Virus record (IMG/VR): IMGVR_UViG_2923307698_000008
Direction: 5' to 3' (one strand)
Source of the DNA: a virus
Taxonomy: Duplodnaviria > Heunggongvirae > Uroviricota > Caudoviricetes
Length of the DNA stretch: 49,166 bases
Positions 24,001 through 27,000 of this stretch are shown in pieces. The position numbers are program-made. How positions within the stretch are numbered: position 1 is the stretch's first letter; the number at the start of each line of letters is the position of its first letter.

Positions 24001-27000
24001 GCAAAAATACAGAACCCGGTGTCAATAAGTTTTCCTTTTGACACCTCATTTTTTAACTGCTGTGTAACAGCCTGTTCTGCTGTCAGTTCCCATCTGGCAA
24101 TAAGCAATTTTTCCTCATAGTCGTCTTCGCTATCGCCATCAGGCACATCGTTTTTACTTCTCCTCAGATACGATATGTAAAAATCGCGCCAGGCATCCAG
24201 ATCCAGTTGCCCTCGCTTATTCGATATCGGGGCACCCGGCAATTTCTGCAATCTGCGAAGCTGGCGATCGGTCAGACTTAAATGCCTGGCAACTTCAGTC
24301 TGCGTAGCCACTCCTCACCTCGCAAAAACTCTCACCTCACAATCACAACAAAACCGGTCATGTCCGGTTTACATGTCTGTTTTTTGTTCATGTCCGGTTC
24401 ACAGAAGACCTGTTTTTATATTTTTCATATAGTTAACTTGAAGAGAAACCGGACATGGATCCCGGAAAATTTTCATAAATAGCGAAAACCCGCGAGGTCG
24501 CCGCCCCGTAACCTGTCGGATCGCCGGAAAGGACCCGCAAAATGATAATAATTATCATCTACATGTCACAACGTGCATCTACGCCATCAAACCACGTCAA
24601 ATAATCAATTATGACGCAGGTATCGTATTAATTGATCTGCATCAACTTAACGTAAAAACAACTTCAGACAATACAAATCAGCGACACTGAATACGGGGCA
24701 ACCTCATGTCAACGAAGAACAGAACCCGCAGAACAACAACCCGCAACATCCGCTTTCCTAACCAAATGATTGAACAAATTAACATCGCTCTTGATCTGAA
24801 AGGTTCAGGTAATTTTTCAGCGTGGGTTATTGAAGCCTGCAGAAGAAGATTAATTAATGAAAAATATTCTCAATTTGTACCCAACAAAGACAAACACGAC
24901 CAGAGCACCTGTTCAGACAGGTTTACTTAAACGACTTATATATGACACAAAAAGCGACCACTAAAGTCGCTTTTTCTTATGGTAACAGGCAATAACTCTC
25001 TCAGATATTTTTTAGCATTTTTTTGACCGCGCGTTTCCGGACGTATTCTGTTCTCCTGTCCCTTTATATCGTCGGAATACCCGCCGCTCTTCAAATCCCA
25101 TTCCCAACTCAGAATGTAGTCTGTTGACCGCTTGTTTTATTTCGGTCAGGTTCACCGGTGAAACCGGAGTCCGGCGCGCCTTACGCAAACACTCTGCTCG
25201 TTTCTGTGCCGCCACTTTTCTTTTCTGGTCATCACTTAGCTGTACCATCACTTTTGCCCATCGTTCAGCTGCTCTCCGGTACAGTCCTTTTTTCTCTAGA
25301 CATTCTGCCACGTGATCATGTAGCATAAGTGACCTCCGATTATCTACAGACTGCCATCCTGAATTTACCTTCCCTTAATGAAATAACAATAAAAAACAAA
25401 CCACGCAAAAACAATAAAACAACACACAAAAAAAACTAAATAATAAACAAAAATAATCACCTTATTTTATTATTTTTTGAGGGAGCAATTACTGAACAAA
25501 AAACGCTGACTATATACTCAAAACCAAACAACTATTCTGCCAATCAGGTATCATGGCAACACACGGAATTACCATGTTTTTGCCTTCTCTGCCCATACAA
25601 TACGGGCATATACTTCATTCTCTATTGTAATATTTCTATCCATGTGCCCCACTCCATTTACCTGTAATAATATTCAAAATATTTATCACAGAAATCGTTT
25701 TTGGCCATGAACTGAGCACACTATAAAGTCCGGAACTGACTCTTTGTTAAATTACCTTAACGTTACCAGTAACACTTTCATAACAAAACATCACGGTATA
25801 CACTGGGTACGGATATATTCCTGTGCTCCTTCCAGTTGCTTCTGCATTGCCATCAGCCGTTCTCTGAGGATGAAATAATCCCGTTCAGCGGTGTCTGCCA
25901 GTCGGGGGCCGGTTGCATTATCCACGCCGGAGGTGCCGGTGGCTTCACGCACGGTACCGGAGCAGGTGGCGTTGATCCGCAGGCGCTTACGACCAGCGGC
26001 AACATCAGCACGCAGAGTTTCATTTTCAGCTCTCGCATCGGCTAATTCCCTCGAGTATCTGGCATCAAGTGCAGCGACATCACGCTGGCGTATCTGCATA
26101 TCAGTAATTGTCGCGTTCGCCAGCTCCAGCTCACTGGCTTTTTTATCGCGCTGCTCTTTGTAGATGATGGCGTGATCACGGTAATGATTCAGCCCCAGAC
26201 TAAGCGCACCACAGGCCACCAGCAGGACAATGATAACCACGCACAGAACACGGTTCATATCACCACCAACGGATTGCCCAGACCAGAACAGCAATGGCCA
26301 CAATACGAATGGCAAAAGCTGCCGCTCTTGTTAAATCCAGACTGGCTGGCGTCTCCACTTCAATGCCTTTCATAATGGACAACCTCAGAAAGAATCTTTT
26401 ATACTTCCTCACAGGGAAAGTACCTCCCTACCCATAATTTCTCCCTTGCCTTACTCAAGGTCAGAAAACACAAAACCCCGCTTGCTGCCAACAAACGGGG
26501 TTTTTACTTTTATTCACTTAGGTTTTACCAGTTTTCAGGATTTCGTGTTATCCACCCGCGTTGGCCAACGTCATTTTTCAGGAAAATATTCTGCTATCTG
26601 TCGATGTCCCAGCACGCCAGCGCGCTCTCCTGGTCACGCCGTGAGACCTGACCGTAGCAATTATTTGAACGGATACGGCAGTCTCTGCCACCGTCCTTAA
26701 TCCACCAGCGAATCGCCTCACAGGCACCTTTTCGATCGCCTGCATTAATTCGTTTATAAAACGTCGACGGGAAGCACTTACCGGGGCCAATGTTATACGG
26801 ACAGAATGACGCGATCCCCGCTTTCTGGGGTTCGGTCAGCGGCACCCGGATGTTTTTCTCCACCCATGCCAGCGCCTTGTCACGTTCGATGGCATTAACC
26901 CGGTCGCATTTTTCCTTTGACAGCTTCATGCCAGGAATAACAGGCTTACCATCCACCAGAATGGCACCACGGCAGATGGTCCAGATCCCCGCACCATCAC

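Follow-up and report, generated by a model that had tools for sequence, protein, structure and literature searches.

The Pch proteins of enterohaemorrhagic Escherichia coli (EHEC) are small regulators without recognisable DNA-binding motifs, which bind within AT-rich regions bound by H-NS, lower the occupancy of H-NS and StpA at the LEE1 promoter (LEE: locus of enterocyte effacement), and cause no activation without proteins of the H-NS family (PMC4764244). In K-12, expression of ler-lacZ rises at least 4-fold with each of the group 1 Pch proteins (PMC5931665), and pchA counts among the master switches of attaching-and-effacing (A/E) virulence in EHEC. The control of pchA itself has also been described. 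LrhA activates the gene directly and butyrate activates it via Lrp, with a LeuO feedback loop (PMC4456613, PMC7279287); a further input comes from NtrC and sigma-S (PMC10714755, PMC13012123). The small RNA (sRNA) DicF activates pchA translation and pairs with an anti-Shine-Dalgarno element (anti-SD) inside the pchA coding sequence (CDS) (PMC7769764, PMC7873438, PMC9438474). Here we describe a gene of the PerC family in a 49,166-nt stretch of tailed-phage DNA (IMG/VR record IMGVR_UViG_2923307698_000008; the whole of this stretch is called the window below). The gene is almost certainly pchA, a group 1 PerC homologue that is carried as cargo at the end of the lysis operon of a lambdoid prophage of the Sp4/CP-933M type and has an upstream control region of its own (Table 1).

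An earlier note, made from the sequence alone, had described here a 104-aa open reading frame (ORF) with a signature resembling PerC and Pch, and had staked this reading on a profile search and on alignment to PchA, PchB, PchC and PerC. Both analyses bear it out. The protein matches the PerC profile PF06069 with 149.3 bits against a gathering cut-off of 22.6 (E 3.8e-44), and the match is full-length, with residues 1-89 on profile positions 1-89 of 90; it also matches PHROG 994 (E 1.4e-45). When 35 diverse members, among them PerC of enteropathogenic E. coli (EPEC), are aligned, the columns with full or at least 90% conservation define the signature residues of the family, which are all present in the window protein (D4, A7, L10-E11, G14, R17-R18-A19-A20, R22-W23, and C46), and the same columns hold in an alignment of 67 sequences. 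The family-invariant residues among them, R17, R18, A19, A20, W23, and C46, are all kept. Amino acid identity is 100% to PchA of E. coli O157:H7 Sakai (ECs_1091), 99% to PchB (V6L), 98% to PchC (V6L and V58M), and 47% to EPEC PerC.

The nucleotide sequence points to the same allele. The CDS differs from Sakai pchA by a single synonymous change at nt 30, and at nt 16, 172, and 183, the positions which tell pchA from pchB and pchC (PMC5931665), it reads G, G, and C, the pattern of the pchA allele. Upstream region, gene and downstream terminator together show 6 differences from Sakai pchA over 871 aligned bp. In RefSeq, all of the near-identical genomes listed name the homologous gene "PerC family transcriptional regulator". 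Nothing contradicts the identification as pchA, and the weak points all concern the control region; the gene, its place and its regulation are already known from the literature and from RefSeq annotation. The earlier note had also pointed out that proteins of the Pch type link prophages to LEE regulation in enterohaemorrhagic strains. Since the protein is PchA residue for residue, that link is literal, and activation of LEE1/ler, as well as a requirement for full LEE expression and adherence, has been shown experimentally for the identical protein (PMC4764244, PMC5931665).

Of 5426 complete E. coli genomes, 672 have the 779-bp unit formed by the gene and its upstream region in full length, with 1879 places in all and a median of 3 per genome, and gene and upstream region always occurred together (all hits at ≥80% coverage). 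The PerC family as a whole is small: at 50% identity it makes up 82 clusters in a set of 1.84 billion representatives, and all hits that bear an organism name are from Enterobacterales.

The earlier note placed the gene between Rz and cos, and this is where it lies. On the minus strand of the late region, the order is holin, endolysin, Rz/Rz1, pchA, cos, Nu1, and the large terminase subunit, with a ylcI-like gene on the plus strand between pchA and cos. The YlcI/YnfO-family name of the latter matches the annotation in the closest genomes. The terminator between the two convergent genes has folding energies of -14.7 kcal/mol (minus strand) and -12.3 kcal/mol (plus strand) and is identical in Sakai pchA, pchB, and pchC. 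The same slot between Rz/Rz1 and cos/Nu1, with an upstream region of about 464 bp and the terminator, is common to the three Sakai genes and the window. The DNA flanking cos (24462-24840) is 95-98% identical to lambda-like phages and includes the annotated cos site of phage DE3. Because the likeness to lambda itself spans only this segment, the pch module of about 950 bp looks like a moron-type cargo insertion that would replace the content following Rz in lambda. No Rfam family was found within 24300-26300, even at E ≤ 1.

The spacer between Rz and pchA has a GC content of 33.0%, compared with 50.6% for the window, so that it falls within the lowest 1.2% among all windows of its length, and it is about 99% identical to its Sakai pchA counterpart. 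About 450 bp of AT-rich DNA with iterated A-tract and CA motifs had been reported here in the earlier note. The AT-rich part of this description stands, for 464 bp, but the iterated A/C part covers only about 85 bp, about a fifth of the spacer. In this core (T/G-rich on the gene strand), the A+C fraction reaches 0.82-0.88 and the GC fraction falls to 0.18, the extreme 100-bp values of the whole 49-kb window, and Tandem Repeats Finder reports a degenerate repeat with a period of 21 and about 3 copies at 25393-25457. The remaining 380 bp or so are AT-rich without A/C bias (A+C 0.48-0.64 per 50 bp).

Comparison of the three Sakai upstream regions shows that the distal 300 bp are almost invariant, whereas the tract from -50 to -150 is hypervariable, with strong divergence in pchB and mild divergence in pchC. 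Against pchB, the window is identical at 30 of 50 positions in -150 to -101 and at 35 of 50 in -100 to -51; against pchA, it is identical at 100 of 100. The A/C-rich tract with its 21-bp repeat is thus, in these alignments, the allele-specific part of the pchA, pchB, and pchC control regions. As the segment that differs among the three genes, it is a natural candidate for their differential regulation, and its variability fits published work in which LrhA regulates pchA and pchB differently. The window also has a 1-nt deletion in an A-run at about 25666 (about -340 from the ATG) relative to the three Sakai genes. Two short ORFs in the spacer were considered as genes and rejected. A hydrophobic ORF of 31 codons (25365-25460) is absent in pchB and frame-shifted in pchC. 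An ORF of 46 codons, open upstream of all three Sakai genes, is broken in the window by the 1-nt deletion; it is probably not coding, since each pchC difference checked inside it is non-synonymous.

Based on the literature on the identical protein, PchA, which is small and very basic, would bind AT-rich DNA at the LEE1 (ler) promoter and loosen the silencing complex of H-NS, StpA, Hha, and YdgT. Ler would then be switched on, and Ler in turn would turn on the LEE type III secretion system together with many non-LEE effectors. The AT-rich region of 464 bp is best explained as a signal-integrating control region that belongs to pchA, an explanation based on published work with the near-identical Sakai sequence. 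Transcription would be activated by LrhA, by Lrp with butyrate, and by NtrC/sigma-S. The A/C-rich tract may act as an allele-specific tuning element, and it probably offers bent AT-rich DNA to nucleoid-associated or LysR/Lrp-type regulators. Translation would be held back by pairing of the Shine-Dalgarno (SD) sequence with the anti-SD inside the CDS, and DicF would release it under low oxygen. On prophage induction, pchA would also be transcribed from the Q-antiterminated late promoter.

DicF is encoded on the same prophage, so that the published translational activator and its target travel on one element. The DicF gene adjoins dicB in the immunity/early region. In one RNA fold, the SD region is paired with +87 to +99, and the 5' end of DicF can pair with +87 to +104. 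The proposed scheme has some weak points. The fold of the translation-initiation region is no better than that of shuffled sequences (z -0.97), and shuffles are beaten only by a modest margin in the case of the DicF-pchA duplex (z about -2.5, with 3-4 of 300 shuffles as good). The number of sigma-70-like sites in the scanned region is not above chance; the scan gave one weak site in the spacer (25559-25531, 9 of 12 matches). In addition, the LEE lies outside the window. The RNA computations speak neither for nor against the DicF mechanism, and given the modest strength of the duplex, the DicF step rests on the literature and not on these computations.

Members of the PerC family do not all act alike, and some have a null or repressing effect on LEE1 (PMC6265319, PMC11773190). 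It could therefore be supposed that the window protein is an inactive or differently acting paralogue, of the type of PchD, PchE, K-12 YfdN, or the LEE-repressing protein EcCIMP1_025 of a phage-inducible chromosomal island (PICI), rather than an activator of the LEE. This is excluded by its 100% identity to the experimentally active PchA. A second question is whether pchA is essentially a late phage gene, read through from pR' past Rz, with the AT-rich spacer as inert DNA at a moron junction. Its collinearity with S-R-Rz speaks for read-through, and no terminator-like site was found between Rz and pchA on the minus strand. When expression was followed after SOS induction by RNA sequencing resolved by single-nucleotide polymorphisms, the increase was about 8-fold for pchC and, narrowly missing significance, more than 3-fold for pchB, and pchA did not rise (PMC5931665); pchC and pchB are both collinear with their lysis genes. 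In Sakai Sp4, an inversion bounded by IS629 has turned the pchA-Rz-R-S block against the rest of the prophage, so that it is cut off from the late promoter, and this inversion may account for pchA of the Sakai lineage, unlike pchC and probably pchB, not being induced by SOS. In the window, the block (25012-28021) is collinear with Q and the packaging genes. From this collinearity and the missing terminator we infer that transcription from the Q-antiterminated late promoter would, once the prophage is induced, extend into the window pchA as well. Late transcription as the whole explanation is nevertheless very unlikely. The 464-bp spacer is at least 99% conserved and always lies beside the gene across 1879 copies. 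Although cut off from the late promoter, Sakai pchA is expressed, is needed for LEE expression, and is regulated by LrhA and Lrp (PMC4456613, PMC4090186), and PpchA alone, placed on a plasmid, is enough for a synthetic butyrate sensor to function (PMC7279287). According to the literature, the upstream region of the Sakai copy by itself gives a reporter regulated activity.

The earlier note had further called the upstream tract typical of curved promoters silenced by nucleoid proteins. Taken to its specific form, this reading makes the tract an intrinsically curved promoter whose silencing by H-NS would be the main control of pchA. The composition part of this claim holds up. The GC content is 33% in the spacer and 18% in the core, the degenerate repeat of A-tracts has a 21-bp period (two helical turns), and in EHEC, AT-rich DNA gained by horizontal transfer is in general covered by H-NS (PMC4764244). 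The 10-11 bp A-tract periodicity and the wedge-model curvature lie in the top 0.5% of the window, the curvature rank being indicative only. However, higher peaks of periodicity and curvature lie elsewhere in the window, at about 36.4, 37.0, and 32.3 kb, and there is no enrichment of the high-affinity H-NS motif TCGATAAATT, for which the spacer has a single site with 2 mismatches and the whole window 54 sites, where 43 are expected. In the literature searched, there is no report of H-NS binding to pchA or of its hns-dependent derepression; the published regulators are activators (LrhA and Lrp) and an sRNA, and the promoter scan is uninformative. Silencing as the main control is thus possible but doubtful. 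Some silencing of the pchA promoter by H-NS is plausible, and it would be compatible with a signal-integrating control region, not opposed to it.

The AlphaFold2 model of PchA has a mean predicted local distance difference test (pLDDT) score of 80, and above 90 for residues 1-50. It shows helices at residues 5-13, 16-29, 33-50, 60-73, and 78-85 and a disordered basic tail, and contains a tetratricopeptide-repeat-like unit of three helices and no helix-turn-helix, which as a model agrees with the picture of Pch in the literature. A Foldseek search with the model gave nothing significant, and a search by sequence gave no solved structure of any relative. The profile of the AraC negative regulators (ANR; NCBIfam NF033650) is matched at E ≤ 0.1 by the N-terminal 50 or so residues of 33 of the 35 diverse PerC-family proteins. 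For EPEC PerC the E value is 0.0017, and in two proteins the scores lie above the curated cut-off of PF06069 as well as that of NF033650. The window protein matches with 13.6 bits (E 0.046) over residues 7-47 on the profile of 54 positions and is therefore, with a cut-off of 32, not a member of the ANR family. Such matches would indicate a related fold or remote homology only. ANR hits for the LEE1-repressing PerC-like PICI protein were mentioned in passing in a 2025 paper (PMC11773190), and ANRs act by binding H-NS and AraC-type activators (PMC10148876). We tentatively suggest, while considering it rather unlikely, that the N-terminal three-helix domain of PerC and Pch is a divergent ANR domain. 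If so, Pch could de-silence LEE1 mainly by contact with H-NS-family or AraC-type regulators, in the manner of Aar and Rnr, and not as a conventional DNA-binding activator, and the basic C-terminal half would provide non-specific affinity for AT-rich DNA. For the mechanism of Pch, the putative PerC-ANR link is suggestive.

The prophage in the window resembles Sp4/CP-933M and extends from an espV-like effector gene (1-1209) to an integrase gene (48147-49166). Among complete genomes JNE132847 is nearest, with an identity of 99.9% in 24330-25800 and of 99.95-100% in the part that it shares with the window. Its prophage, in which the tail region is deleted relative to the window, lies at serT beside the hya operon, the site of Sp4/CP-933M. 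The espV-like gene at the tail-fibre end, as cargo encoding a type III secretion system effector, suggests a host from an A/E-pathogen background. The IS3-family element is missing at the corresponding site of the JNE132847 prophage. The AraC-family regulator gene is the positional counterpart of the AraC-family regulator gene ECs_1087 in Sakai Sp4; presumably, it may be a Psr/PatE-type prophage regulator that affects acid resistance and the LEE. The tRNA-Ile(CAU) of the cluster adjoining STnc100 was typed as Met by ARAGORN, and the stretch with STnc100, tRNA, and esterase genes is presumably a region of the prophage proximal to the late promoter. The lowest-GC kilobase of the window is 36040-37160, where 464-bp windows fall to 30% GC and the strongest A-tract periodicity and modelled curvature are found; it surrounds an alpha/beta-hydrolase-like ORF (36393-37166) without a Pfam hit.

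Table 1. Positions in the window of the pchA locus, its neighbours and other prophage features
Feature	Position	Strand	Evidence or remark
espV-like ORF	1-1209	+	extends beyond the window start; the matching DNA of JNE132847 bears the annotation "secretion protein EspV" (partial)
IS3-family element (IS629/IS1203-like)	15198-16505		95% to Sakai copies; ALIL frameshifting pseudoknot at 15533-15649
Large terminase subunit	21902-23887	-	profile search and ORF call
Nu1	23802-24311	-	profile search and ORF call
cos	24495-24506	-	exact cohesive end of lambda (GGGCGGCGACCT when read on the phage strand); matched once, against a chance expectation of 0.01
YlcI/YnfO-family (DUF3950) gene, convergent with pchA	24706-24930	+	PF13132 1.8e-18; NF041551 1.5e-08
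Bidirectional intrinsic terminator	24949-24975	both	AAAAAGCGAC-loop-GTCGCTTTTT; between convergent pchA and ylcI-like genes
pchA CDS (group 1 Pch/PerC-family regulator)	25012-25326	-	ATG start; 104 aa, 12.0 kDa, pI 10.3
Shine-Dalgarno GGAGG of pchA	25333-25337	-	6 nt 5' of the ATG; invariant in Sakai pchA, pchB and pchC
pchA upstream regulatory region (putative promoter(s) and leader)	25327-25790	-	464 bp; Rz-to-ORF spacer
A/C-rich core (T/G-rich on the gene strand)	25377-25460	.	about 85 bp, about -51 to -134 from the ATG
Rz (last lysis genes of the late operon)	25791-26258	-	directly upstream of the pchA module; Pfam Phage_lysis 8.4e-49; homologous-locus annotation
Rz1, embedded in Rz	25853-26038	-	ORF call
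Endolysin ORF	26594-27127	-	named from homologous loci
Holin ORF	27815-28021	-	named from homologous loci
SASA-family esterase gene	28469-30319		downstream of the STnc100/tRNA cluster
STnc100 sRNA family match and tRNA-Ile(CAU)/Arg/Arg cluster	30542-30732 and 30809-31058	-	STnc100 match 138 bits
AraC-family regulator, 237 aa	31087-31800	-	HTH_18/HTH_AraC; between Q and the tRNA cluster
hok/sok-type toxin-antitoxin locus	35783-35957	-	match of 107 bits to sok antitoxin RNA; annotated as hokD in the nearest genome
DicF sRNA gene	44717-44768	+	full-length match to Rfam RF00039 with 77 bits (gathering score 48)

An intact pchA allele marks the prophage, and probably its host, as part of the A/E-pathogen gene pool. 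The prophage carries pchA, DicF, an AraC-type regulator, and a type III effector gene, and if the ANR reading is true, it would amount to a self-contained virulence-regulation cassette. The analysis yielded two modest points: the tract singled out by the earlier note is the segment that differs among pchA, pchB, and pchC, and the profile similarity between PerC and ANR is consistent.

Several described systems can be compared with the window locus. In the ANR family (Aar, Rnr; NF033650), the profile is matched by the N-terminal three helices of the PerC family, and both families act on virulence regulons under H-NS control. ANRs differ from Pch in their size of 4-9.5 kDa, in lacking the C-terminal half, and in being anti-activators that work by protein-protein contact (PMC10148876), whereas Pch is an activator reported to bind DNA. 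PchD, PchE, and K-12 YfdN (groups 2 and 3) and the PerC-like proteins of PICIs belong to the same family PF06069 but are more distant in sequence, with little, no or negative effect on LEE1 (PMC6265319, PMC5931665, PMC11773190).

EPEC PerC, encoded in the perABC operon of the EAF plasmid pMAR7, is a member of the same Pfam family with 47% identity over residues 2-88, and according to the literature it has the same target, LEE1/ler. It differs in being plasmid-borne and encoded at the end of an operon under the control of the AraC-type PerA, in its length of 89 aa without the basic C-terminal tail, and in having neither a prophage context nor a private AT-rich control region. PchB (ECs_2182, Sp11) and PchC (ECs_2737, Sp14) are encoded in the same slot as the window gene, with nearly identical distal 300 bp of upstream sequence and terminator; they differ by V6L in both and V58M in PchC, and in the diverged tract from -50 to -150.

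The closest relative is Sakai PchA on Sp4. It shares with the window the same protein, a CDS with one synonymous base change, about 99% identity in the 464-bp upstream region and terminator, Rz/Rz1 as upstream neighbours, and the same prophage type, with integration at serT in the nearest genome. It is reportedly the protein that was named PerC1 by Porter et al. in 2005. The window differs from Sakai pchA by the 1-nt deletion in the distal upstream region and, in arrangement, by its collinear pchA-Rz-R-S block, which corresponds to that of pchB and pchC, whereas the Sakai pchA block is inverted and lies next to IS629.

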